Position numbers and translations under genes: made by a program
The notes under the pieces: model-generated
Told to the model about the DNA's origin: nothing
Databases searched by the model: none
The model's input: only the letters and a program-made list of their open reading frames with translations
Assembly (NCBI GenBank): GCA_003539375.1
Contig: DPPH01000052.1
Coordinates: 10,743 to 51,565, forward strand
Direction of reading: 5' to 3'
From: Clostridiales bacterium
Lineage (GTDB): Bacteria; Bacillota; Clostridia; Tissierellales; Dethiosulfatibacteraceae
DNA: 40,823 nt
Shown here: one piece after another, positions 1,751 through 33,468 of the stretch
How positions within the stretch are numbered: the stretch's first letter is position 1
Layout: each line of letters begins with the position of its first letter

Positions 1751-1933
1751 AAAATACCATCTTTCATTTAAATATCAATAAATATTATACATAAAAATCA
1801 ACAAAAAATAAAGGATATAACCTAATCAAATACAGTATAATAAAAGACGGTATCAAAATGAAAACCTTTTATCATATAATATATTGTGTATTATTTAACA
1901 ATTAATTTCAAAATGAAAGGAATGGAGGTAGAG

Positions 1934-2851
1934 ATGCGAAAAATATCTTTAATATTGATTGCTTCCTTACTTCTAGCGTCAGTAGCTGGTCTAAGTGGTT
2001 GTGCTACATATGATTTCGCTGAAGAAGGGACAGTTATAATTTCACCAAGTGAAGCTTTAGAATTAGTAAAGGAAGAAAATGTAGTACTTATTGATGCTCG
2101 AAACGAAGCTGAATATGAAGCATATCATGTAGAAGGTGCTGTAAATATACCGAGAAGTGCAATAGTTACAGATAAGCCGTATCCAAATATGTTGGCACCA
2201 AAAGTTCGTATTGAAAATGTTATGGGCAATAGTGGTATATCTAATGATACATTAGTAGTTGTTTATGATAATAACAAAAATATGGATGCAGCTAGATTAT
2301 GGTGGACGCTTTTAGTATATGGACATGAAAATGCAAAAATCATAAACGGTGGAGTAAATGCTCTAGCTAAAGATGGAGTTGAATTTGTTCAGGAAGTTCC
2401 TGAAGTAGAAAAAGCTCAATTTACAGCTGAAGAACTTAATACAGATTACATTGCAACAAAAGAAGAAATTGAAGGTTATCTAAACGAACCTCAAGAAGAC
2501 ATTCTACTTTTAGATACAAGAACCCAAGAAGAATATGCAGCGGGAACTATACCAGGGTCAGTACTATATAATTTTGAAAACAATAATTATTCAACTGGAG
2601 CTTTTAAATCTCCAAAAGACATTCAAAATGATTATATTGATATTGGGATAACTCCAGATCAAACAATTGTAATGTTTTGTAAAACTTCTATAAGAGGAGC
2701 CCAATCATTTGCAGCCTTATATAATGCTGGATACAGAAATTTAAAGCTATATGATGGAGCATGGGTAGAATGGAGCGATAGTGATGAAGTGCCAGCTGAA
2801 GAACCAGCTGATACACCAGCACCGCCACCATCATCTTCAGATGGAAGTTGA
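1934..2851 (+). CDS. Exported two-domain rhodanese (thiosulfate/3-mercaptopyruvate sulfurtransferase-like) lipoprotein
   Basis: ORF 1886-2851 trimmed to ATG 1934, which is preceded by GGAGG at 1924-1928. Signal peptide MRKISLILIASLLLASVAGLSGC has a lipobox. The N-terminal rhodanese domain is inactive (VVVYDNNKNMDAARLWW) and the C-terminal domain is catalytic (loop FCKTSIRG). Pro/Ser-rich C-terminal tail: EEPADTPAPPPSSSDGS. Confidence 0.85.
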   Translation: MRKISLILIASLLLASVAGLSGCATYDFAEEGTVIISPSEALELVKEENVVLIDARNEAEYEAYHVEGAVNIPRSAIVTDKPYPNMLAPKVRIENVMGNSGISNDTLVVVYDNNKNMDAARLWWTLLVYGHENAKIINGGVNALAKDGVEFVQEVPEVEKAQFTAEELNTDYIATKEEIEGYLNEPQEDILLLDTRTQEEYAAGTIPGSVLYNFENNNYSTGAFKSPKDIQNDYIDIGITPDQTIVMFCKTSIRGAQSFAALYNAGYRNLKLYDGAWVEWSDSDEVPAEEPADTPAPPPSSSDGS

Positions 2852-2902
2852 TAAATAAATTAAATTTAGGGGTTAAAAATTAAATCAAATAGGAGGATTT
2901 AA

Positions 2903-4726
2903 ATGAACACACTTTTAAAAAGATTTTTAGTATTACTTACTGTAATAGCATTAGTATTTAGTATGGCAGCCTGCTCTCCAAGTGAAGAGCCAGCTGAAGA
3001 ACCAGAACAGGAAGAACCGGCTGAAGAGCCAGAAGAGGAAGAACCAGCTGAAGAGCCAGCTGAAATTGATCCGGCAACAGTTGAAGCTGCTGTAAATAGT
3101 TATTTTTCTGAAATGCCAGAAGATATTTATAAAATTGGACAGGCAGATTTCATAGAAAAAGTAGCTAACGGCGAAGACATGTTTGTTCTCGATATAAGAC
3201 AGGCAGATGCTTATGCTGAGGGACATATAATAGGAGCATATAATGCACCATGGGGCCCGGCAATAGCTGAAAACTTGGATAAATTACCAACGGACAAAAC
3301 TGTTTATGTTTACTGTTATTCAGGACAGACTGCAGGTCAAGCTGTAGCTACATTAAACATGGCTGGTATCGATGCAAAATCAGTAAACTTAGGTTTTAAC
3401 TATGGTATATCAAAAGTAGAAGGATACGAAGATTATATTGAAACTTATGAATATGAATTTGGTCCTGCGATTACAGATATAGATCCATCAATCCAAATGG
3501 CATTGACTGAATATTATGAAGGATTAGCAGATGTAGCAGGAACAACTTATGCAAATTACAAAATAAGTGAAGCAGACCTTAACACACTAATAGAAGAAGG
3601 CGACGACAGCATATATATATTATCTATTAGAGGTGAGGATGCATACAACGAAGGACATATAACTGGAGCTGAGTTACTACCATTTGGTAAAGGAATGCAA
3701 GAAGGATTCGGAGATTTACCAAAAGATAAAACCATCGTAGTATACTGCTACACAGGACAAACAGCAGGTCAAACCGTAGCAGGTCTTAGACTTTTAGGAT
3801 ACGATGCAGTTTCTTTAAATGGTGGTATTGGAATGCCTTCAAATTCACCTTTAGGATGGGTAAATCAAGGTTATCCACTTCATAACCAAGAGGGAACTGA
3901 AAATGTAGTGGAAGATGCAGCAATGGCTTATTTTGCTAACTTATCAGATGACATTAATAAAATTGGACAGGCTGAATTTTTAGAAAAAGTTGAAGCTGGA
4001 GAAGATATGTTTGTTCTTGATATAAGACAGGCAGATGCTTATGCTGAAGGTCACGTAAAAGGCGCTTACAACGCACCTTGGGGCCCTGCAATTGCAGAAA
4101 ATTTAGCAAAAATACCTCAGTTACCATCAGGGACTCCGGTTTATGTATACTGTTATTCAGGACAAACAGCAGGTCAAGCTGTAGCTACATTGAGAGTTGC
4201 AGGTATAGATGCTATATCAGTAAACTTAGGATTTAACTATGGAATAGCAAAAGTTGATGGATATGAAGCATATTTAGAGACAGAAGCTAATGAATTTGGC
4301 GAGGACGTAGCAGAAGTTGATCCAACCATTCAAGCAGCTATTACTGATTACTATGAAGGATTAGCAGATGTGGCTGGAACTACTTATGCAAACTATAAAA
4401 TTAGTGAAGCAGATCTTAATAGCCTAATCGAAGCTGAAGATGATAGCATATATGTGCTGTCAATAAGAAGTCAAAGTGCTTATGATGAAGGACATATACC
4501 TACTGCTGAACTTTTACCATTTGGTAAAGGAATGCAGGAAGGGTTCAGTGACTTACCAAAGGATAAGACTATTGTAGTTTACTGCTATACTGGTCAAACG
4601 GCTGGTCAAACAGTTGGAATATTGAGACTTTTAGGATACGATGCAGTTTCTCTTAACGGTGGAGTTGGAATGGAATCCAATGCACCATTAGGATGGGCAA
4701 ACCAAGGATTTGAATTAGTACAATAA
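2903..4726 (+). CDS. Exported lipoprotein with four rhodanese domains (A-B-A'-B'), each with an intact catalytic Cys loop
   Basis: 607 aa. Signal peptide ends in a lipobox-like MAAC, followed by an acidic EEPAE linker. Four rhodanese domains carry loops VYCYSGQTAGQ / VYCYTGQTAGQ / VYCYSGQTAGQ / VYCYTGQTAGQ (C-x-x-G-x-T spacing of sulfurtransferase-type rhodaneses such as GlpE). RBS AGGAGG lies upstream of ATG 2903. Confidence 0.85.
   Translation: MNTLLKRFLVLLTVIALVFSMAACSPSEEPAEEPEQEEPAEEPEEEEPAEEPAEIDPATVEAAVNSYFSEMPEDIYKIGQADFIEKVANGEDMFVLDIRQADAYAEGHIIGAYNAPWGPAIAENLDKLPTDKTVYVYCYSGQTAGQAVATLNMAGIDAKSVNLGFNYGISKVEGYEDYIETYEYEFGPAITDIDPSIQMALTEYYEGLADVAGTTYANYKISEADLNTLIEEGDDSIYILSIRGEDAYNEGHITGAELLPFGKGMQEGFGDLPKDKTIVVYCYTGQTAGQTVAGLRLLGYDAVSLNGGIGMPSNSPLGWVNQGYPLHNQEGTENVVEDAAMAYFANLSDDINKIGQAEFLEKVEAGEDMFVLDIRQADAYAEGHVKGAYNAPWGPAIAENLAKIPQLPSGTPVYVYCYSGQTAGQAVATLRVAGIDAISVNLGFNYGIAKVDGYEAYLETEANEFGEDVAEVDPTIQAAITDYYEGLADVAGTTYANYKISEADLNSLIEAEDDSIYVLSIRSQSAYDEGHIPTAELLPFGKGMQEGFSDLPKDKTIVVYCYTGQTAGQTVGILRLLGYDAVSLNGGVGMESNAPLGWANQGFELVQ
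2984..3064 (+). repeat. Imperfect in-frame tandem repeat encoding (E)EEPAE units (acidic Pro-rich linker)
   Basis: gaagagccagctgaa / gaaccagaacaggaa / gaaccggctgaagag / ccagaagaggaagaa / ccagctgaagagccagctgaa. Translation: EEPAEEPEQEEPAEEPEEEEPAEEPAE. Confidence 0.75.
3074..4723 (+). repeat. Intragenic direct tandem duplication: unit 1 = 3074-3901, unit 2 = 3902-4723, each encoding a two-rhodanese module
   Basis: aa 58-333 and 334-607 align end to end. Long identical stretches include GEDMFVLDIRQADAYAEGH, GAYNAPWGPAIAENL, YVYCYSGQTAGQAVATL, YYEGLADVAGTTYANYKISEADLN, ELLPFGKGMQEGF and DLPKDKTIVVYCYTGQTAGQTV. The DNA matches too: atgtttgtt at 3179 versus 4007, an in-frame offset of 828 nt. Confidence 0.9.
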
Positions 4727-4744
4727 TTTGAAAAAATAATGGAA

Positions 4745-4777
4745 GGTGGTCTTCAAAGGACCGCCTTTTTTCTTTTT
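4745..4777 (+). terminator. Rho-independent terminator after the rhodanese genes
   Basis: GGTGGTCT (4745-4752) pairs with GGACCGCC (4758-4765), including two G-U pairs, around a 5-nt loop. TTTTTTCTTTTT follows. Confidence 0.7.
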
Positions 4778-4784
4778 GAATATG

Positions 4785-4793
4785 TGGTATAAT
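4785..4793 (+). promoter_or_regulatory. Extended -10 promoter element (TGgTATAAT) for the selU gene
   Basis: TGG at 4785-4787 followed by TATAAT at 4788-4793, about 20 nt upstream of ATG 4815. No good -35 element seen. Confidence 0.4.
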
Positions 4794-4814
4794 AATCTAT
4801 TATAGGAGGGAAAA

Positions 4815-5852
4815 ATGCTTATAACTAGACCGTATGAAAAATTAAAAGACAACAGCATATTTATTGATGTAAGAAGTCCTGGAGAGCATAGTTCTGAAAG
4901 GATAATAGATTCTATAAACATCCCATTATTTAATGATGAAGAAAGAAGCCTCATAGGTACTGCATATAAACAGCAAAGTGTTACTGAAGCTAGAAGACTT
5001 GGAGTTGAAATTGTATCCAAAAAACTACCTAATTTTTTTGGAAAAATTAATGAATTAATTGATTCAGAAGATAAGCAGCTTGCGGCATACTGTGCGAGAG
5101 GTGGGTATAGAAGTACTTTTTTTGCTTCTGCATTCTCATCCGTTGGAATGAATATAATAAAAGTAGATGGTGGTTACAAAAAATACAGAAAATATATATA
5201 TGAAAATCTTCCTAAACTTAATGACAAAATGAAATATATAGTGATTCACGGTAATACAGGAGTAGGTAAAACTGAGATACTTAATGAATTAAAAAAAGAA
5301 GGTGAGTATATACTTGATTTTGAAAAGGCAGCAAACCACAGAGGGTCACTACTAGGAGGGATAGGACTAGGAGAACCTAGCAGTCAAAAAAACTTTGAAT
5401 CTAAAATATTTAATTACATGGATAAAGCAAAAGATGATTATATTTTTGTGGAAGCAGAAAGTAGAAGAGTTGGAAGTGCAATGATACCAAAATATATCCA
5501 TGATAAGATGAAATCGGGTATACACATATATGTAGATGCAAGTACTGAGAAAAGAATAGAGATACTAAGGAATGATTATATTCAAAACAAGTTTTGGAAA
5601 GAAGAATCCATAAAAAACATAGATAGATTGAAGAAATATATCTCAAAAGAAAGGATAAAAGAATTAAAAAATAAAGTTGAAAATAACGATTTTGACTATG
5701 TAGCTAAAGAATTAATGATAAATTACTACGATTCAATGTATCAAAATAAGTCTAAAGAATATGACTATGATTTGGAGTTGAAAAACGATAATTCTTATAA
5801 AACTGCTATAGAAATAATTAACTGGAAAAAAGAAAATATTCTTGGCAAATAG
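4815..5852 (+). CDS. selU: tRNA 2-selenouridine synthase (rhodanese domain + P-loop domain)
   Basis: 345 aa. The N-terminal rhodanese region resembles E. coli SelU/MnmH/YbbB: IDVRSPGEH, NIPLFNDEERSLIGTAYKQQ, catalytic AYCARGGYRS, VDGGYKKYR. It is followed by Walker A HGNTGVGKTE. RBS AGGAGGG lies before the ATG. Confidence 0.85.
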   Translation: MLITRPYEKLKDNSIFIDVRSPGEHSSERIIDSINIPLFNDEERSLIGTAYKQQSVTEARRLGVEIVSKKLPNFFGKINELIDSEDKQLAAYCARGGYRSTFFASAFSSVGMNIIKVDGGYKKYRKYIYENLPKLNDKMKYIVIHGNTGVGKTEILNELKKEGEYILDFEKAANHRGSLLGGIGLGEPSSQKNFESKIFNYMDKAKDDYIFVEAESRRVGSAMIPKYIHDKMKSGIHIYVDASTEKRIEILRNDYIQNKFWKEESIKNIDRLKKYISKERIKELKNKVENNDFDYVAKELMINYYDSMYQNKSKEYDYDLELKNDNSYKTAIEIINWKKENILGK

Positions 5853-5870
5853 TATTAAAAATGCTATAAT
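5842..5870 (+). promoter_or_regulatory. Near-consensus sigma-A promoter: TTGGCA - 17 nt - TGcTATAAT
   Basis: -35 TTGGCA at 5842-5847 (inside the last codons of selU), 17-nt spacer, TG at 5862-5863, TATAAT at 5865-5870. It lies 28 nt upstream of ATG 5898. Confidence 0.6.
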
Positions 5871-5884
5871 AGAACAAACGTTCT
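5871..5884 (+). promoter_or_regulatory. LexA (SOS / Cheo) box aGAACaaacGTTCt
   Basis: Perfect GAAC-N4-GTTC palindrome (GAAC 5872-5875, GTTC 5880-5883) starting immediately after the -10 hexamer, so it covers the expected transcription start. It matches the Gram-positive LexA/DinR consensus CGAAC-N4-GTTCG in the core. Confidence 0.65.
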
Positions 5885-5897
5885 TTATGGTGATAAT

Positions 5898-7127
5898 ATG
5901 GATAATTTAATAACAAAACTTAAAATTTTAGCTGAAGGTGCAAAATATGATGTATCATGCTCATCTAGCGGTGTAGAGAGAAAAAATAAGGGTAAAATTG
6001 GCAGTTCGAGGTCTTTTGGAATATGTCATACATGGTCAAGTGATGGTAGATGTATATCATTACTTAAGGTGTTGATGTCTAACAACTGCATTTATGATTG
6101 TACCTACTGTATTAATAGGGTTAGCAATGATATAAAGAGAGCTTCTTTTTCTCCGGAAGAAATAGCAAAACTAACTTTTGAATTTTATAGGAGAAATTAT
6201 ATTGAAGGTCTTTTTTTGTCTTCGGCAGTAGAAAAAAATCCTGACTACACATCTGAAAATATTTGTAAAGCTCTGGAAATACTTAGGTTTAAATACGGAT
6301 TTTCTGGATATATTCATGTGAAAGGAATTCCTAATACTTCTAAAGATTTAATGAATAAACTAGGATTTTTAGCTGATAGACTAAGTATAAATATAGAATT
6401 ACCAAGTGAAAAGAGTTTAAAACTTTTGGCTCCTCAGAAAAAAACAAAAACTCTACTTCTGCCGATGAGAGATTTAAATAACAAAATAATGGAAAATAGA
6501 GATGAAAGAAGCAGATATAAAAAGGCTAAAAAATTTTTACCTGCAGGACAAACGACCCAGATGATTGTAGGAGCATCTCAGGATAGTGATTATCAACTTT
6601 TAAAGACCAGTCAAATACTATATGATAAGTTTAGTTTAAAAAGAGTTTTTTATTCAGCATATATACCGGTGGTTGAAAACTCACTGCTACCGGCTGTCAA
6701 CACAAAACCTCCTTTAAAAAGAGAGCACAGATTATATCAGGCTGATTGGCTCTTAAGGTTTTATAACTTTAGAGCGGATGAATTACTATCTGAAGAAATT
6801 AGAAATTTCGACTTGGAGTTCGATCCCAAAATCAATTGGGCTTTCAATAACATTGGCCAGTTTCCAAAAGAAATAAACAAGGTATCCTATGACGAGCTTT
6901 TAAGAATACCAGGGATAGGTCCAAAATCAGCAGGAAGAATAGTAAAAGAGAGAAAATTTTTCCCTTTAAACTATGATAATCTAAAAAGAATTGGAGTGGT
7001 ATTGAAAAGAGCAAAATATTTTATAACTTGCAGTGGAAAATACTACGGTGGTATAGATATTAGTCCCGAGTTAATTAAGTACAAATTAGGAGAAATGGAA
7101 AACAGCCGACAGATATCATTTTTTTAA
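5898..7127 (+). CDS. Putative DNA modification/repair radical SAM protein (TIGR03916-like) with C-terminal helix-hairpin-helix
   Basis: 409 aa. CxxxCxxC cluster motif NNCIYDCTYCIN. C-terminal HhH LLRIPGIGPKSAGRIV. Always-paired partner gene lies immediately downstream. Confidence 0.85.
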   Translation: MDNLITKLKILAEGAKYDVSCSSSGVERKNKGKIGSSRSFGICHTWSSDGRCISLLKVLMSNNCIYDCTYCINRVSNDIKRASFSPEEIAKLTFEFYRRNYIEGLFLSSAVEKNPDYTSENICKALEILRFKYGFSGYIHVKGIPNTSKDLMNKLGFLADRLSINIELPSEKSLKLLAPQKKTKTLLLPMRDLNNKIMENRDERSRYKKAKKFLPAGQTTQMIVGASQDSDYQLLKTSQILYDKFSLKRVFYSAYIPVVENSLLPAVNTKPPLKREHRLYQADWLLRFYNFRADELLSEEIRNFDLEFDPKINWAFNNIGQFPKEINKVSYDELLRIPGIGPKSAGRIVKERKFFPLNYDNLKRIGVVLKRAKYFITCSGKYYGGIDISPELIKYKLGEMENSRQISFF

Positions 7128-7136
7128 GGAGGTCAA

Positions 7137-7865
7137 ATGGATTATTTATATGATGGTACTTACACAGGATTTATGACTTCTTTATACCTTCATTTTAAAT
7201 ACAGAGAAAGTACAGGTATTTATTCAAAAAAATTCTATCAAGAATCCTTGACATCAAATTATAAAATAGTGAAAACTAATGAAGATTTATCTCAAAAAAT
7301 GGAAGGATTAATAAGGGATAAAATTTCTAGTAGGGCCTTAAAGTTAATTTATTATAGTTTTCTATCAAACGAAGAAAAAAAAGAAATGTTTATTATAAAA
7401 TTTGTAAAATTAGGTTTAATAAAAGGAAATATTACTGGTCTATATTCTCATGAAGATACTTTTCCTCTTCAAAAAATATATGATAAAGTATCTAAAGAAA
7501 AACATAGATTTTTAGGGATAATTAGATTTAAAGATATTAATGGAGTGTTATTTTCAAAATATTCACCAGATCATGATATTACAGAACTTATTATGCCCCA
7601 TTTTTCCGATAGGTATAAAAATGAGAACTTAATAATTTTTGATGAAAAGAGATTAAAAGCTGGTACATATAATAAAAATGAATGGTATCTTTCAAAAATT
7701 GATAAAAGAATTTATGATAAATTCAAAGATGAAGAAGAAATTTATGAAAAAATGTGGAGAGAATATTTTAATTCTATAAGCATAGATGATAGGAAAAACT
7801 TAAAGGCTCAATTTCAATTTGTACCTTATAGGTATAGAAAAAATATTACGGAATTTAATAAATAA
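7137..7865 (+). CDS. DUF4130 / TIGR03915-like 'probable DNA metabolism protein', obligate partner of the radical SAM protein; no fused UDG domain
   Basis: 242 aa beginning MDYLYDGTYTGFMTSLY, the characteristic YDGsfeG-type N-terminus of this family. The start lies 9 nt after the stop of the radical SAM gene, with RBS AAGGAGG. Confidence 0.75.
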   Translation: MDYLYDGTYTGFMTSLYLHFKYRESTGIYSKKFYQESLTSNYKIVKTNEDLSQKMEGLIRDKISSRALKLIYYSFLSNEEKKEMFIIKFVKLGLIKGNITGLYSHEDTFPLQKIYDKVSKEKHRFLGIIRFKDINGVLFSKYSPDHDITELIMPHFSDRYKNENLIIFDEKRLKAGTYNKNEWYLSKIDKRIYDKFKDEEEIYEKMWREYFNSISIDDRKNLKAQFQFVPYRYRKNITEFNK

Positions 7866-7907
7866 TATTTATAATTAATTCTGAATAAAACCTTAATAAA
7901 TAAAGTG

Positions 7908-7945
7908 TACACCTTAAATAAACTTATGAAAGGTGTATTTTTTTT
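7908..7945 (+). terminator. Rho-independent terminator
   Basis: TACACCTT (7908-7915) pairs with AAGGTGTA (7930-7937). TTTTTTTT follows at 7938-7945. Confidence 0.65.
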
Positions 7946-8090
7946 GCGGACACAAGTTTTTAAAATTACACAAAACAGAATTCGAAAAAGTTTACTAAAG
8001 AAAAAATTAAAATAATAAACAAATAAGGTTGAAAAATTAATTTAATTTTGCTATGCTATATTCTAAAGTGAAATAGGTGGTGTAATAATT

Positions 8091-11000
8091 ATGAGAAAAT
8101 TTAAAAGAATTTTAGTGGCAAATAGGGGAGAAATCGCCATAAGAGTATTTAGAGCATGTAAAGAAATGGGAATTAGGTCTGTAGCTATTTATTCAGAAGA
8201 AGATAAAAATTCTCTTTTTAGAACAAAGGCCGATGAGTCCTATCAGATTGGTAAAAATAAAAGTCCAGTAGATGCTTATCTAGATATAGATGAAATTATA
8301 AACATGGCTATTTCAAAAGGTGTGGATGCAATACATCCAGGATACGGCTTTTTATCTGAAAATGTAGAATTTGCTAGAAAATGTAAAGAGTCTGGAATAG
8401 ATTTTATTGGACCAAACCATGAAATGATGGACCAGCTTGGAGACAAAATAAAATCTAAAAAAGTTGCTAACAAAGTAGGAGTCCCTACGATTCCAGGAAT
8501 TGAAAAAGCTGTAAAAAATCATAAAGATGCAGTAGATTTTGCAAACTATTGCGGATATCCTGTTATTTTAAAGGCAGCAGCTGGCGGCGGCGGAAGAGGA
8601 ATGAGAATTGTTAGAAAAGAAGAAGATTTAATTGACGAATTTAAAAGTGCAAAAAATGAAGCAAAAAAAGCTTTCGGCATAGACGATATTTTTATAGAAA
8701 AGTATTTAGAAAAGCCAAAGCATATTGAAGTACAGATATTAGGGGATAAACATGGTAATATTGTTCATCTATTTGAAAGAGACTGTTCTATTCAAAGGAG
8801 ACATCAGAAGATTATTGAATTTACCCCAGCTTTGTGTATAGATGATAAGAAAAGACAGGAAATATGTGAAGATGCCTTATCTATTGCAAAAGCAGTGGAT
8901 TACGTTAATGCAGGTACGGTAGAATTCTTAGTAGATTCTAAGGGAGACCACTATTTTATTGAGATGAATCCTAGAATACAGGTTGAGCACACGGTAACTG
9001 AAGAAGTAACTGGAATTGATATTGTACAATCCCAAATTTTGATTGCTGAAGGATATCCCTTAAGCTCAGAAGAAATAGGTATAAAATCTCAAGAAGATAT
9101 AAGACAGAATGGATTTGCAATACAGTGTAGGGTAACTACCGAAGATCCTGCTAACAATTTTGCTCCTGACACCGGTACTATTGATGTTTATAGGTCAAGT
9201 TCAGGATTAGGTATTAGACTTGATGGTGGAAATGGTTTTACAGGGGCTGTTATAAGCCCTTATTACGACAGTTTGCTTGTAAAGGTAACTTCCAAGGCTA
9301 GAACCTTTAAAGATGCTGTAAACAAATCCTCGAGAGCTCTAAGAGAGTTTAATGTTAGAGGCGTGAAAACTAACATAGGATTTCTTCTTAATGTTTTAAA
9401 TCATGAAACTTTTGTGAAAGGTATGTGTGATACTGGCTTTATAGCTGATAATCCGGAACTTTTTGATATTAGAAGTGGAAGAGATTCAGAACTTAGAGTT
9501 ATAAAATACATTGGAGAAAAAGTAGTAAATGAAACTAGGGGAGTAAAACCTCAATTTGATGTTCCTAGAATTCCTAAATATTATGAAAATTTCATAAAAG
9601 AAGGTACTAAAAATATCTTTGATAAAGAAGGATCAAAAGGAATAGTTAAATGGATTAAAAATCAAAAGAAATTACTACTTACAGATACAACTATGAGGGA
9701 TGCTCATCAGTCTCTTATGGCAACTAGAATGCGTACAATAGATATGCTCAAAATTGCTCCTGCTGTAGCAAGATTAGCTCCAGACTTATTTTCTATAGAG
9801 ATGTGGGGTGGAGCAACTTTTGATGTATCTTACAGATTTTTAAAAGAATCTCCCTGGGAAAGAATGGAAAAATTGAGAGAAGAAATTCCAAATATTCTTT
9901 TCCAAATGTTATTAAGAGGATCTAATGGAGTAGGATATAAAAATTATCCAGATAATGTTATTAGAGAATTTGTTAAGGAATCTGCCAATAGTGGCATTGA
10001 TGTATTTAGAATATTTGATTCCTTAAACTGGATTAAAGGAATGGAAATTTCAATTGACGAAGTTTTAAACCAGGGCAAGATAGCTGAAGCATGTATGTGT
10101 TATACTGGTGATATTTTAGATAAAAAAAGAGATAAATATTCTCTTAAGTATTACGTAAATATGGCTAAGGAACTAGAAAAAGCAGGAGCCCATATACTAG
10201 GGATAAAAGATATGTCGGGACTTTTAAAACCTTTGGCAGCAGATAAATTAATAAGGGCTTTAAAGAATGAAATTAGTATACCAATTCACTTACATACTCA
10301 CGATACTAGTGGTAACGGTGTGGCTGCATTACTAATGGCTGCAAATGCAGGAGTAGATATTGTAGATACAGCATTTAACAGTATGTCAGGACTTACAAGT
10401 CAACCGGCACTAAACTCGGTGGCAGCAGCTTTAGAAAATACTGAAAGAGAAACTGGATTAGATATGGAAAAGATACAGGAAATATCTGATTACTGGAGAA
10501 GCGTGAGGCCTGTTTACAATAAATTTGAATCGGACTTAAAGTCAGGAACTGCAGAAATATACAAATATGAAATTCCTGGAGGTCAGTATTCTAATTTAAA
10601 ACCACAGGTAGAAAGTTTTGGCTTAGGTCATAAATTTAAAGAAGTAAAAGAGATGTATAAAAAAGTAAACATAATGTTAGGAGACATAATAAAAGTTACA
10701 CCATCATCAAAAGTAGTAGGAGATTTGGCTATTTTCATGGTACAAAATAACTATACTCCAGAGAATATCTACGATAAGGCAAAAGGGCAGGATTTTCCTG
10801 ATTCAGTGGTTTCATATTTTAGAGGTATGATGGGCCAACCCCAAGGGGGATTTCCAGAAAAACTTCAGAAATTAGTATTAAAAGACGAGAAGCCTATTAC
10901 AGTGAGACCAGGAGAATTATTAGAACCTTTAGATTTTAACGAGATTAGAAATAAGATAGAAGAGAAGCATAAAATTAATGCCGGTATTAAAGACATACTA

Positions 11001-30710: not shown

Positions 30711-31763
30711 ATGAAAAACAAAAAAATAATTTTAATTTTAACATTAGTTTTAACAATAGGGATGCTTTCAGGATGTATTCAAAAAGCAGAAAGTGAAGAA
30801 GTAGCAACAGTAAATGGTGAAAGTATATCTAGAGAAGCATATTTAAACGAATTAAATATCTATAAAAATATGTATGAAACTCAGTACGGCAAGGATGTTT
30901 GGAGTATAGAAATAGAAGAAGGAAAAACCTTTGAAAGATTTCTTAAAGAGTCAGTTTTAGAAAATATGATAACAGATAAAGCTTTAGAACAGGTTGCAGC
31001 AGAATACGGTGTAGAGGTTACTGATGAAGATTTAGAGAGCCAATTCGAAACATATAAAGCTCAGTTTCCATCAGAAGAAGATTATCAAACCTTTATAGAG
31101 TCTAATAATATGACTGAAGAATATTTAAAAAATACTATAAGAAAAGATAAATTAATAAATACTTATCTGACAAACTATACTGAGGAATTAGAAGTGACGG
31201 AAGATGAGTTAAAGACTTACTACGAAGAAAATAAAGATCAGATAGACAAAGTAAGAGCAAGCCATATTTTAGTTGAAGACCCTGTTCTTGCTCAAGACAT
31301 ACTAGCAAAGCTTTACGATGGAGAAGATTTTGCTAAATTAGCAGAAGAGCACTCAATAGACAGTACATCAAAAACCGGTGGTGACTTAGGATTCTTTGGT
31401 AAGGGAGAAATGATTCCGGAATTTGAAGAAGTAGCCTTCAGCTTAGATGTTGGAGATTTAAGTGGACTTGTTGAAAGCCAGTTTGGAATTCATATAATAA
31501 AAGTTACTGAAAAACAAACTACTTTTGAAGAGAATAGAGAAGCTGTGGAAGAACAGTATAGAAGTACACTTTTTAATGAGAGAGTTACTGAAGTAAAAGA
31601 AAATGCAGAAGTGGAAAAATCCGTAGACTATGATAAAATAGATTTAGGAATCGAGGAATCACCTGAAGAAGAGTCAGATTCAACAGGGGAAGAAGAGTCA
31701 CAAAATCAAGAATCCGATGATTCAGAAAATGAAGATGGTGAAGGAAGCGAAGAAACAGAATAA
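30711..31763 (+). CDS. prsA: PrsA/SurA-like peptidyl-prolyl isomerase lipoprotein (parvulin domain) with acidic C-terminal tail
   Basis: 350 aa. Signal peptide with lipobox LSGC. Parvulin block RASHILV...GGDLGFFGKGEMIPEFEE...FGIHIIKV. C-terminal SPEEESDSTGEEESQNQESDDSENEDGEGSEETE. Confidence 0.8.
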   Translation: MKNKKIILILTLVLTIGMLSGCIQKAESEEVATVNGESISREAYLNELNIYKNMYETQYGKDVWSIEIEEGKTFERFLKESVLENMITDKALEQVAAEYGVEVTDEDLESQFETYKAQFPSEEDYQTFIESNNMTEEYLKNTIRKDKLINTYLTNYTEELEVTEDELKTYYEENKDQIDKVRASHILVEDPVLAQDILAKLYDGEDFAKLAEEHSIDSTSKTGGDLGFFGKGEMIPEFEEVAFSLDVGDLSGLVESQFGIHIIKVTEKQTTFEENREAVEEQYRSTLFNERVTEVKENAEVEKSVDYDKIDLGIEESPEEESDSTGEEESQNQESDDSENEDGEGSEETE

Positions 31764-31779
31764 ATCAAAGGAGTGTACT

Positions 31780-33468
31780 ATGAAAATAAAATTTACCGGA
31801 GCAGCGGGAACAGTTACCGGATCATGTCATTATTTAGAAATTGAAGATAAAAAAGTTCTTTTAGATTGCGGCTTATTTCAAGGGAAAAAAGAAGTAGAAG
31901 AATTAAATTATGAAGAATTTCAATTTAATCCAAAAGAAATAGATTATTTATTTTTAAGTCATTCTCATATTGATCACAGTGGCAGAATTCCTTTATTAGT
32001 AAAAAAAGGTTTCCAAGGAAAAATTTATGCAACAAAGCCAGCAAGTGACTTATGTTCAATTATGCTAATGGATAGTGCCCACATACATGAAGTAGAAGCA
32101 GAGTGGAAAACTAGAAAGGCCCTAAGAAAAGGTGAAGAAGAAGTTAAACCCTTATATACTAGTGAAGATGCTTCTGAATCTCTGAAGTTGTTCAATCCTG
32201 TTCTGTACAATCAAAAAGTTGAAATTGATGAAAATATTACTTTGAGATTTAAAGATGCAGGTCACATACTTGGTTCAGCTATTATAGAACTATGGATAAA
32301 AGAGAACGGCGAAGAGGAAAAGCTTGTATTTACTGGAGACTTAGGAATGAAGGATAAACCTATTCTTAGAAATCCTGAAATAGTTGAAGAATGTGATTAT
32401 CTAATCATAGAGTCTACATATGGAAATAGACTACATGAAGAAGTTGAAAAGAGAACGGATAAATTAATAGATGTACTTGTTAAAACAATAAAAGAAGAAG
32501 GAACCGTTGTTATTCCATCCTTTGCTGTAGGTAGAACCCAAGATATTATTTATGAACTTAACAAATATTATGATGGCAAGGAAACAGAGTCGAAAAAAAT
32601 ACTACAGGACATACCTGTATATATAGATAGTCCTCTAGCTACTAAAGCTACTCAGATATTCAATCAAAATCCTCAAGCCTTTGATAAAGAGGCTAGGGAT
32701 TACATTATGAAAGGTGATAATCCTTTATTCTTTAAAAATTTACATTTTACACAAAGTGTAGATGATTCTAAAGCTCTTAATATATCTACAGAACCTAAGA
32801 TAATAATTTCTGCAAGTGGGATGTGTGAAGCTGGTAGGATAAGACATCATTTAAAACACAATCTGTGGAGACATAATGCAGCAGTTGTTTTTGTAGGTTA
32901 TCAAGCTGATGGTACCTTGGGTCAGAGATTGAAAGATGGCGAAAAGGAAGTAAAAATATTAGGAGAAGAAATAAAAGTAAACGCAAATATATACAGTATT
33001 GAAGGATTTTCCGGACATGGCGATAGAGATGATCTGCTAGCATGGTTAAAGGAAATTAAGAAAACTCCAAAGAAAACCTTTATAGTACATGGAGAAGAGG
33101 ATGCAAGAGAAGAATTTGCTGAAACTATTAAGAACCAACTAGGTCTGGAAACTATTATTCCAAAAAAAGATGAAGAGTTTCAAGTAACTTTAGAGAGCGT
33201 AGAAAGTTTGGGGCATGAAGATAGCAGAACTTTATTCAAATCTTTAAGAAGGATTGCTGAAGAAGAAAGTCAACTGGTAGAAGTAGAGAAGGTAAAGGAA
33301 TTAAAAGATAAACTAAAAGAATTAAAAGTACTGTTTAGTAAGACTACTGAAATTACAGATAGTAATTTAAAAGAAGAATTAACAACTAAAGATTATAATA
33401 AAATCAAAAATCATATAATAGAATTGGAAAAAAGCATTGTTAACCTTACAATGTCAAGTGGAAAGTAA
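31780..33468 (+). CDS. MBL-fold beta-CASP family hydrolase (RNA-metabolising metallo-beta-lactamase type) with C-terminal helical extension
   Basis: ORF 31717-33468 trimmed to ATG 31780 (MKIKFTGAAGTVTGSCHYLE), preceded by AAAGGAG. HSHIDHSG metal motif, beta-CASP-type blocks (ESTYG, SASGMCEAGRIRHHL, GFSGHGD). The last roughly 90 aa are charged and coiled-coil-like. Confidence 0.8.
   Translation: MKIKFTGAAGTVTGSCHYLEIEDKKVLLDCGLFQGKKEVEELNYEEFQFNPKEIDYLFLSHSHIDHSGRIPLLVKKGFQGKIYATKPASDLCSIMLMDSAHIHEVEAEWKTRKALRKGEEEVKPLYTSEDASESLKLFNPVLYNQKVEIDENITLRFKDAGHILGSAIIELWIKENGEEEKLVFTGDLGMKDKPILRNPEIVEECDYLIIESTYGNRLHEEVEKRTDKLIDVLVKTIKEEGTVVIPSFAVGRTQDIIYELNKYYDGKETESKKILQDIPVYIDSPLATKATQIFNQNPQAFDKEARDYIMKGDNPLFFKNLHFTQSVDDSKALNISTEPKIIISASGMCEAGRIRHHLKHNLWRHNAAVVFVGYQADGTLGQRLKDGEKEVKILGEEIKVNANIYSIEGFSGHGDRDDLLAWLKEIKKTPKKTFIVHGEEDAREEFAETIKNQLGLETIIPKKDEEFQVTLESVESLGHEDSRTLFKSLRRIAEEESQLVEVEKVKELKDKLKELKVLFSKTTEITDSNLKEELTTKDYNKIKNHIIELEKSIVNLTMSSGK

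Follow-up and report, generated by a model that had tools for sequence, protein, structure and literature searches.

We propose that two adjacent genes in a 40,823-nt stretch of contig DPPH01000052.1 (assembly GCA_003539375.1, Clostridiales bacterium; the whole stretch is called the window here, and all coordinates are window positions unless another locus is named) form an SOS operon, whose products, a radical S-adenosylmethionine (SAM) enzyme with a helix-hairpin-helix (HhH) module (TIGR03916, COG4277) and a DUF4130 protein (TIGR03915), would make up a complex acting on DNA. This is overall the best explanation of what we see, and we hold it to be probable. What the analysis itself shows is the anatomy of the promoter and operator, the family membership, and the conservation of the operator (across lineages and types of LexA motif), of a set of cysteines and of a motif in the enzyme's tail. 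SOS control of this pair is already published, and the operon of the window is one more case of an SOS module already known; new here are the clamp-type motif in the enzyme's tail, three extra N-terminal cysteines, and the UdgX identity of a domain that is fused to the DUF4130 partner in other phyla.

Wang et al. described a conserved LexA site upstream of CAC3343-CAC3344 in Clostridium acetobutylicum and, on footprinting and expression data, put forward control by LexA; expression of the C. acetobutylicum orthologue clusters with that of lexA, recA and uvrB (PMC3828012). Sanchez-Osuna et al. count the COG1573-COG4277 operon among the SOS-regulated ones of Bacteroidetes, citing earlier reports for Verrucomicrobia and Alphaproteobacteria (PMC8565304), and in the LexA-less Acinetobacter the radical-SAM and TIGR03915 genes belong to the DdaA damage regulon (PMC12392091). 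Aravind's group, in 2013, tied DUF4130, the radical-SAM enzyme and uracil-DNA glycosylases (UDGs) to SOS neighbourhoods (PMC3765255). An August 2026 preprint presents a confident AlphaFold 3 model of a radical-SAM-DUF4130 heterodimer with a narrow channel, and compares it with MiaB; it describes DUF4130 as a degenerate DHH/RecJ-like fold which has no conserved DHH catalytic residues and is unlikely to be catalytic, and it states that the pair's reaction cannot yet be determined (bioRxiv 10.64898/2026.08.19.745780). An earlier reading of this DNA, made without database searches (hereafter the sequence-only reading), had held that no chemistry was assigned to the pair, and this still holds in the latest paper on the pair that we found, the August 2026 preprint.

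Promoter and probable LexA operator of the operon

The operon starts at the very end of the upstream gene, mnmH (tRNA 2-selenouridine synthase, 343 bits), the stop codon of which (5850-5852) falls in the promoter spacer; the radical-SAM gene begins 45 nt after the end of mnmH, with no terminator in between. The sequence-only reading had placed here a near-consensus promoter, TTGGCA-17-TGcTATAAT (5842-5870), directly followed by a perfect GAAC-N4-GTTC palindrome over the expected transcription start, and we found both as described (Table 1). The promoter is the best sigma-70-type match in 5600-8150, with 11 of 12 positions and the TG extension. The palindrome begins 1 nt after TATAAT and so covers the expected transcription start; both of its half-sites are perfect against the Cheo box CGAAC-N4-GTTCG, and its spacer, AAAC, fits RNRY. 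The predicted leader of the operon is only ~20 nt long, and an Rfam search of 5500-8200 gave no match at E<=1, which rules out a leader RNA or riboswitch.

The window as a whole holds a single GAAC-N4-GTTC, and a second perfect LexA box, sought across it, was not found. Boxes with at most one mismatch number five, including the perfect site, against 8.3 expected, so that the four one-mismatch sites represent no enrichment. The weight of the evidence lies instead on the position of the site, given above, and on its conservation in related loci.

Six syntenic relatives (L001-L006) share the gene order mnmH, radical-SAM, DUF4130, pyc, and their enzymes have 85-88% identity to that of the window. 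All seven syntenic sequences (the window and these relatives) keep the block AAAATGCTATAATAGAACAAAyGTTCTTT unaltered next to a diverging 3' end of mnmH; the sole substitution within the box among the six relatives is a C to T change in the N4 spacer, and the half-sites are unchanged. In relatives at 55-68% protein identity the box is kept but shifted: it lies over the -35 (the GAACATATGTTTGACA type), between the -35 and -10, or past the -10, and it is often doubled.

The wider scan of orthologous upstream regions for GAAC-N4-GTTC, which the sequence-only reading had proposed as a check, covered 101 distinct regions from genome and metagenome contigs, with expected counts taken from the background rate within the same loci. 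A box with at most one mismatch was present within 200 nt in 68 of them, where ~7 would be expected (an enrichment of ~10-fold), and a perfect box in 32, where ~0.4 would be expected. The symmetrised consensus of 107 sites is (C/A)GAACA(T/A)(A/T)TGTTC(G/T), in which the flank and spacer positions, unconstrained in the search, match the canonical Gram-positive LexA box CGAACATATGTTCG, a consensus reportedly due to Cheo, Winterling, Au et al.

Outside the Gram-positive loci, the operon carries the LexA motif of its own phylum. In three operons of Alphaproteobacteria a perfect GAAC-N7-GAAC, which is that phylum's own LexA motif, stands at -17 to -43, and a Prolixibacteraceae (Bacteroidota) locus has ACTAAAAATATTAGT, an instance of CTAA-N5-TTAG, the motif of the non-canonical Bacteroidetes LexA (PMC8565304). 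A high-GC Oscillospiraceae-like clade without a Cheo box has, directly upstream and on the same strand, a gene for a 204-amino-acid (aa) protein with HTH_3 and Peptidase_S24 matches, a repressor-like protein with a LexA-like catalytic domain and a XRE-type DNA-binding domain (at 2202-2816 in L011, and at the equivalent position in L044, L049, L051, L054, L057, L060 and others).

Because the site is conserved amid drifting flanks and enriched in orthologous promoters, because its unconstrained positions are canonical, and because other phyla use their own LexA motif, we consider LexA control of the operon, as read from these comparisons, to be very likely. The view that this is a LexA-repressed, damage-inducible operon is therefore strongly supported by comparative genomics and agrees with the published reports (PMC3828012, PMC8565304, PMC12392091); it was right, but not new.

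Several promoter variants were seen among the sampled loci. Within each of two pairs of loci (L020 and L019; L022 and L023) the radical-SAM protein is identical and the upstream DNA differs: L020 and L022 have an IS30-like (HTH_38) transposase gene immediately upstream, and the LexA box and -35 (L020) or the entire promoter (L022) have been replaced. The two insertions hit the same promoter independently, and constitutive expression of the operon might result. L016 (Halanaerobacter) and L018 have no Cheo box; what they share instead is an 11-bp inverted repeat, CCTGATTATAA...TTATAATCAGG, its arms ~25 nt apart, which lies ~20-75 nt ahead of the radical-SAM gene, close to the start codon, and could serve as another kind of operator or form a hairpin in the leader. 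In a high-GC clade (L033, L036, L043, L048, L059, L061, L067, L073, L078, L079, L082, L083, L087, L102) two Cheo boxes, ~29-35 nt apart, lie unusually far away, 150-200 nt upstream of the radical-SAM start, implying either that the leader is long or that the start codon is misplaced; these boxes stand at the end of a recurrent 556-aa upstream open reading frame (ORF), which matched no family and is possibly not a genuine gene. In L025 a ~27-nt unit, AATTAGCTATAATTTTTATGAATAATA, is repeated several times in tandem 100-200 nt upstream of the radical-SAM start, right before the promoter and LexA box.

The enzyme, its C-terminal tail and its partner

Profile searches put both proteins in the families named by the sequence-only reading, far above the cut-offs. 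The radical-SAM protein matches TIGR03916 at 622.2 bits (curated cut-off 343.5), its residues 5-403 aligning with profile positions 2-401 of 415, and the partner matches TIGR03915 at 207.6 bits (cut-off 112.25) and PF13566 at 133.2 bits (cut-off 27). The CIYDCTYC cluster motif (aa 64-71) and the C-terminal HhH (PF00633) of the enzyme are present as that reading had them, and a sequence search of the Protein Data Bank (PDB) with the enzyme returned HhH proteins only (the ComEA-related 2duy, E 0.0014; RuvA). The family is widespread, with 788 clusters at 50% identity (E <=1e-30) and an identity of 45-60% between enzymes across phyla.

The AlphaFold 2 (AF2) model of the enzyme has a TIM-barrel core (predicted local distance difference test, pLDDT, 78; predicted template-modelling score, pTM, 0.77). 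Its top-50 Foldseek neighbours include HydE, ThiH, HydG, BioB, viperin, LipA, PFL-AE and MiaB/RimO, at E ~1e-7 to 1e-5 and template-modelling (TM) scores of ~0.35-0.42, and the fold gives nothing more specific than a radical-SAM protein with a DNA-binding module.

N-terminal to the cluster motif lie three further cysteines, in a C21/C43-H44/C52 pattern that is found in 215 of 217 homologues, and in Alphaproteobacteria as well. The obvious reading of these extra invariant cysteines is that they would hold a second Fe-S cluster, as their conservation suggests. Residues 16-51 of the AF2 model have a pLDDT below 50, which in a model of this kind is expected of a cofactor-dependent loop.

The enzyme ends in QISFF, within a tail (residues 400-409) at pLDDT below 50 in the AF2 model. 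The pattern Q-[LMI]-[S/N/T]-[L/F/I/M]-[F/W] occurs in the C-terminal tail of 180 of 217 distinct homologues (P0064-P0183 and L001-L113), most commonly as QLSLF; of 563 control ORFs of 150 aa or more in these loci, none has it in the last 75 residues. It stands 29-44 residues past the last folded element, with 0-34 more behind it, in a tail of variable length with unconserved flanks. In Rhizobium (QLSLL), Phaeobacter (QLALF) and Azospirillum (QLSLF) it is at the extreme end; E. eligens has QQLSLF, and a Gemmatirosa homologue that is only 37% identical has QLSLW. The consensus binding motif for the beta sliding clamp is reportedly QL[SD]LF (Dalrymple et al. 2001).

It is a real, if tentative, possibility that the TIGR03916 enzyme is a client of the beta clamp, in which case QLSLF would dock on DnaN and bring radical chemistry to lesions in template DNA that is single-stranded, at stalled forks or in gaps. 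The searchable literature yielded no paper linking a radical-SAM enzyme to clamp-binding motifs or to the sliding clamp.

A second conserved peptide is seen at the very C-terminus of 37 of the 217 homologues, 15-35 residues beyond QLSLF, and is not in the window's protein. It takes the forms ..E(E/D)xxxCL(T/A)GQ(I/L/M), ..ALSALTGEL and ..EEAVQCLA(K/R)AL, and its carriers include L011, L012-L014, L032, L038, L044, L049, L055, L058, L084 and L088.

The start of the DUF4130 gene is 9 nt past the radical-SAM stop, as had been noted, with GGAGG in the gap. The claim that the two genes co-occur was borne out in our sample, a DUF4130 gene following the radical-SAM gene in 98 of 100 loci with enough downstream sequence. 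Invariant polar residues of DUF4130 are H105, E121, R130, D145, H155, R159, E163, D169 and R172, and there is a conserved basic C-terminal segment, F-V-P-x-R-Y-R-K-N-x-x-E-F. A PDB sequence search with DUF4130 gave no match, and neither protein of the pair has a solved structure.

The sequence-only reading had also called fusion of the partner to a UDG-like domain frequent, and absent here; we can confirm both statements and name the domain. TIGR03915 is the sole NCBIfam match of the window's partner, and no UDG or UdgX domain was matched in it; the ~100 Firmicutes-type loci likewise had no UdgX domain, and retain the pair and its SOS control. The alphaproteobacterial partner (in the Rhizobium, Phaeobacter and Azospirillum operons) matches both TIGR03915 and TIGR03914, and carries the PGAP label 'UdgX family uracil-DNA binding protein'. 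From its sequence signatures, GEQPG, a KRRIH/KRRLH/RKRLH loop and HPSYLLR, the fused domain of other phyla is specifically UdgX-type; the UdgX signature motifs, including HPS(S/A)(L/V)(L/V)R, are as defined in PMC10359453. After excising uracil, UdgX becomes cross-linked to the abasic site; its role is known only as RecA-dependent (PMC4787834).

Table 1. Features of the operon and of the fused partners in other loci
Feature	Position	Strand	Basis and remarks
-35 hexamer TTGGCA	5842..5847	+	inside the final codons of mnmH; conserved in L001-L006
Extended -10 TGcTATAAT (TGCTATAAT)	5862..5870	+	17-nt spacer after the -35; invariant in 7/7 syntenic sequences
Putative LexA operator, Gram-positive (Cheo box) type, 14-mer aGAACaaacGTTCt (= AGAACAAACGTTCT)	5871..5884	none	starts 1 nt after the -10
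Shine-Dalgarno-like GGTGA	5889..5893	+	4 nt before the ATG (5898); read from sequence
Radical-SAM/HhH protein, TIGR03916 (COG4277), 409 aa	5898..7127	+	TIGR03916, 622.2 bits; Radical_SAM and HHH Pfam matches
N-terminal Cys-rich segment: C21, C43 then H44, C52	5958..6053	+	candidate auxiliary Fe-S site; invariant in alignment
CX3CX2C radical-SAM cluster motif CIYDCTYC, aa 64-71	6087..6110	+	sequence, alignment; PF04055 match
Helix-hairpin-helix DNA-binding region, aa 326-353	6873..6956	+	PF00633 (aa 326-349), PF12836; contains LLRIPGIGPKSAGRI
QISFF, aa 405-409, candidate beta-sliding-clamp-binding motif	7110..7124	+	Q405 invariant; tail predicted disordered
TIGR03915/DUF4130 partner, 242 aa, full-length, stand-alone	7137..7865	+	TIGR03915, PF13566; alignment; AF2 model
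Candidate intrinsic terminator	7907..7946	+	9-bp stem, large loop, then T8; hairpin in minimum-free-energy and centroid folds; tentative
Fused UdgX-class partners (Alphaproteobacteria)	L109 4224-5678; L110 4224-5669; L111 4222-5682		

Judging from the sequence, the hairpin and T8 after the DUF4130 gene probably end the operon transcript; a strict terminator scan did not call this hairpin. The pyruvate carboxylase gene that lies downstream of the pair has its own promoter. The other genes of the window are those of an ordinary chromosome: rhodanese proteins, MtnA, the hut operon, MurC, PurR, GlmU, Prs, Pth, Mfd, PrsA and Mrp. Before the operon (1886-5852) runs a set of sulfur/selenium-trafficking genes, the products of which are a rhodanese protein of 321 aa, a protein of 607 aa, and MnmH. 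The second of these starts with a signal- or lipoprotein-like segment, and contains acidic EEPAEEPE repeats as well as an internally duplicated part with several rhodanese domains. Further on, 31717-33468 encodes a 583-aa metallo-beta-lactamase/beta-CASP protein, and shares 47 nt with the end of the PrsA-like gene. Its top NCBIfam match is 'type VII CRISPR-associated Cas14', at 446 bits far below the 800-bit cut-off, and it is more likely an aCPSF1/RNase J-like nuclease than Cas14.

Objections and alternative readings

A number of observations weigh against the reading of the operon as a LexA-controlled, clamp-directed system acting on DNA. With regard to the operator, at least one GAAC-N4-GTTC occurs in 22 of 100 shuffles of the 40.8 kb, so the single perfect match is weak evidence by itself, and one third of the orthologous upstream regions have no box at up to one mismatch. 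No lexA, recA, dnaN or UDG gene is among the genes of the window, and cognate LexA, RecA and DnaN proteins are assumed. With regard to the partner, the AF2 model of DUF4130 (pLDDT 75) gave only non-significant fold matches, to PAP phosphatase, PggH, NrnA, RecJ and Cdc45 (E >=0.013, TM <=0.31); these weak DHH-family matches of a predicted structure agree with the 2026 preprint, and are no evidence by themselves. With regard to the tail, the most divergent representatives of the 50%-identity clusters with complete C-termini have a penta- or hexapeptide variant of the motif in 38 of 65 cases, against 4% of control ORFs, and this under a permissive pattern only, many of the remaining representatives having degenerate forms; the tail motif could be a contact for DUF4130 or another partner instead of the clamp. 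Finally, radical-SAM clusters are oxygen-labile, and yet the family is found in aerobes too.

As an alternative to action on damaged DNA, the SOS-induced pair could convert normal bases, for example thymine or uracil, to a modified or miscoding form, and in this way contribute to damage-induced mutagenesis. This has a published precedent, as DUF4130 has been described as an enzyme with a predicted part in mutagenesis and perhaps a modifier of thymines, and the pair has been linked to ImuB-C and mutagenic-polymerase neighbourhoods (PMC3765255). DUF4130 has invariant polar residues of its own, and so could be catalytic, and a clamp motif is typical of translesion polymerases too. However, no polymerase, ImuA/B or SRAP was among the recurrent neighbour clusters of the ~100 sampled loci, and the 2026 preprint judged DUF4130, in which the DHH catalytic residues are not conserved, unlikely to be catalytic. 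We consider base modification to be unlikely, though the most probable of the alternatives.

Slightly less probable again, in our view, is a role in resolving covalent DNA adducts at abasic sites, in which the radical enzyme would break the linkage of DNA to a protein such as UdgX or one of SRAP type, or would process the abasic sugar, and would not act on a damaged base. The attraction of this proposal is the fusion of the alphaproteobacterial partner to a genuine UdgX domain, which cross-links itself to the abasic site, together with the fact that removal of the UdgX-DNA complex is known only as RecA-dependent (PMC4787834, PMC10359453). Against this, the window and the ~100 Firmicutes-type loci keep the pair and its SOS control without UdgX, so the core function cannot depend on UdgX; and our search of the UdgX literature found no paper that also mentions radical SAM or a radical-SAM partner.

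Could the enzyme instead modify tRNA or rRNA, as MiaB, RimO and RlmN do, and be tied to mnmH, with the palindrome incidental? The close apposition to mnmH (45 nt, no terminator, its stop codon inside the promoter) would fit, as would the presence among the structural neighbours of MiaB and RimO, which also have a three-cysteine N-terminal auxiliary cluster, and the comparison of the complex with MiaB in the preprint. Yet synteny with mnmH is confined to the closest relatives (L001-L006, L027) and absent elsewhere, and on this ground we rejected a functional tie between the two. Conservation of the operator extends across phyla, a uracil-DNA-binding domain is fused to the partner in other phyla, the tail motif is clamp-type, and no methylthiotransferase or TRAM model was matched; RNA modification is thus very unlikely.

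It is just as unlikely that the palindrome arose by chance or is the operator of another regulator, for which the shuffle result and the want of a lexA gene in the window could be cited: the site is kept while its flanks drift, the box is ~10-fold enriched with canonical unconstrained positions, other phyla use their own LexA motif, and the published reports agree. An anti-phage or other mobile-element DNA modification system, as might be suspected from the radical-SAM enzymes of defence systems and from the many large plasmids that carry this family, is the least credible of all, and unlikely in the extreme, since for either protein PADLOC returned 0 families and PHROG no match, the context is a housekeeping chromosome of unremarkable composition, and the plasmid matches are mostly to non-mobilisable megaplasmids or chromids.

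A proposed mechanism and its place among known systems

In the mechanism that we propose for the two-gene SOS operon, the binding of LexA, induction by damage in this organism, docking on the clamp, the DNA substrate and the chemistry are all inferred. In the undamaged cell, a LexA dimer on GAAC-N4-GTTC would block the near-consensus sigma-A promoter and the transcription start, and would probably also act as a roadblock to read-through from mnmH, as there is no terminator between that gene and the radical-SAM gene. DNA damage would lead to RecA-stimulated self-cleavage of LexA, freeing the promoter so that both genes are expressed, and their products would form a heterodimeric complex. The enzyme would bring to this complex its CX3CX2C cluster, a probable second Fe-S cluster on the three N-terminal cysteines, and the HhH module; reductive cleavage of SAM would give a 5'-deoxyadenosyl radical, which would take a hydrogen atom from the damaged nucleotide. 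DUF4130, with a degenerate DHH/RecJ-like nucleotide-binding fold, and the HhH may together hold the DNA, probably single-stranded, over the active site.

The disordered QISFF/QLSLF tail would tether the enzyme to the beta clamp and so direct it to stalled forks and post-replicative gaps. At such sites excision repair would be unavailable, and reversing or converting a blocking base directly would be of use. The nucleotide could be restored, or else converted for downstream enzymes, which in other phyla would be the fused UdgX domain: the partner of ~40% of lineages also carries a UdgX-type domain, which would excise uracil-like bases and cap the abasic site covalently, a step that the Clostridial version would do without. 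As to the lesion, we can offer a guess only: saturated or otherwise altered pyrimidines, or abasic-site adducts.

Comparison with C. acetobutylicum CAC3343-CAC3344 reveals the same two families, gene order, tight spacing and promoter LexA box, and a stand-alone partner, as in Clostridia generally. There is no essential difference; the window has a single operator right after the -10 and a promoter embedded in the end of mnmH, and relatives of the window's operon have one or two boxes elsewhere in the promoter. The COG1573-COG4277 operon of Alphaproteobacteria, Verrucomicrobia and Bacteroidetes (PMC8565304) encodes an orthologous enzyme (45-49% identity) with the same N-terminal cysteines and a C-terminal QLSLF, and has a LexA operator just upstream. 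It differs in its partner, a 485-aa protein combining DUF4130 with a UdgX-type domain (TIGR03914), which the window's partner lacks, and in its operator, GAAC-N7-GAAC or CTAA-N5-TTAG in place of GAAC-N4-GTTC.

The beta-clamp clients Pol IV, UmuC, MutS and Hda likewise have a short QLSLF-type peptide in a disordered terminal tail, conserved amid variable flanks and tail lengths, and SOS regulation of the protein is a further shared point. The window's enzyme differs from these in having a radical-SAM catalytic domain, in place of a function in polymerisation, mismatch repair or replication control, and its clamp binding is predicted from the motif. Among its fold neighbours, MiaB/RimO and BioB/LipA have a second Fe-S cluster on three cysteines, which in MiaB/RimO are N-terminal to the radical-SAM motif. 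Membership of MiaB/RimO was not indicated by Pfam or NCBIfam, in which the enzyme had no UPF0004 or TRAM match, and the similarity of the core is generic; the enzyme differs from MiaB/RimO in its DNA context and in having a separate DUF4130 subunit in place of a TRAM domain.

The sequence-only reading had invoked an analogy with spore photoproduct lyase (SPL; SplB, COG1533). SplB, like the window's enzyme, belongs to the radical-SAM superfamily, and it acts on DNA, as the window's enzyme would; the two would share a logic in which a 5'-deoxyadenosyl radical takes hydrogen from a damaged pyrimidine. SplB is nevertheless of a different family, and SPL needs no DUF4130 partner; to our knowledge, it has neither an HhH module nor a clamp motif. 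We rejected kinship with SPL, as no SPL model matched at E<=0.001, no SPL chain appeared in the PDB sequence search (E<=1) and none was among the top-50 fold matches. SplB has been reported to be SOS-regulated in several phyla (PMC8565304). The sequence-only reading was sound in its description of the sequence, its view of the regulation and its statements on the families, and its SPL analogy found no specific support.

The TIGR03916/TIGR03915 pair is among the most widespread DNA-damage-induced gene pairs whose reaction is unassigned. The window adds one more clean instance, and leaves regulatory knowledge of the pair unchanged. What may move the problem forward is that the clamp-type motif predicts the place and time of the enzyme's action and gives a simple binding assay; that the three extra cysteines predict a second Fe-S cluster; and that the UdgX fusion joins two orphan problems, what UdgX does and what the radical-SAM pair does. 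The Clostridial stand-alone version represents a minimal system, the simplest for anaerobic reconstitution. If the clamp, second-cluster and UdgX observations hold, interest in the pair rises substantially; and if the clamp reading is true, hundreds of bacterial lineages would have a replisome-coupled pathway of direct reversal or lesion conversion, with UdgX as an optional downstream module.

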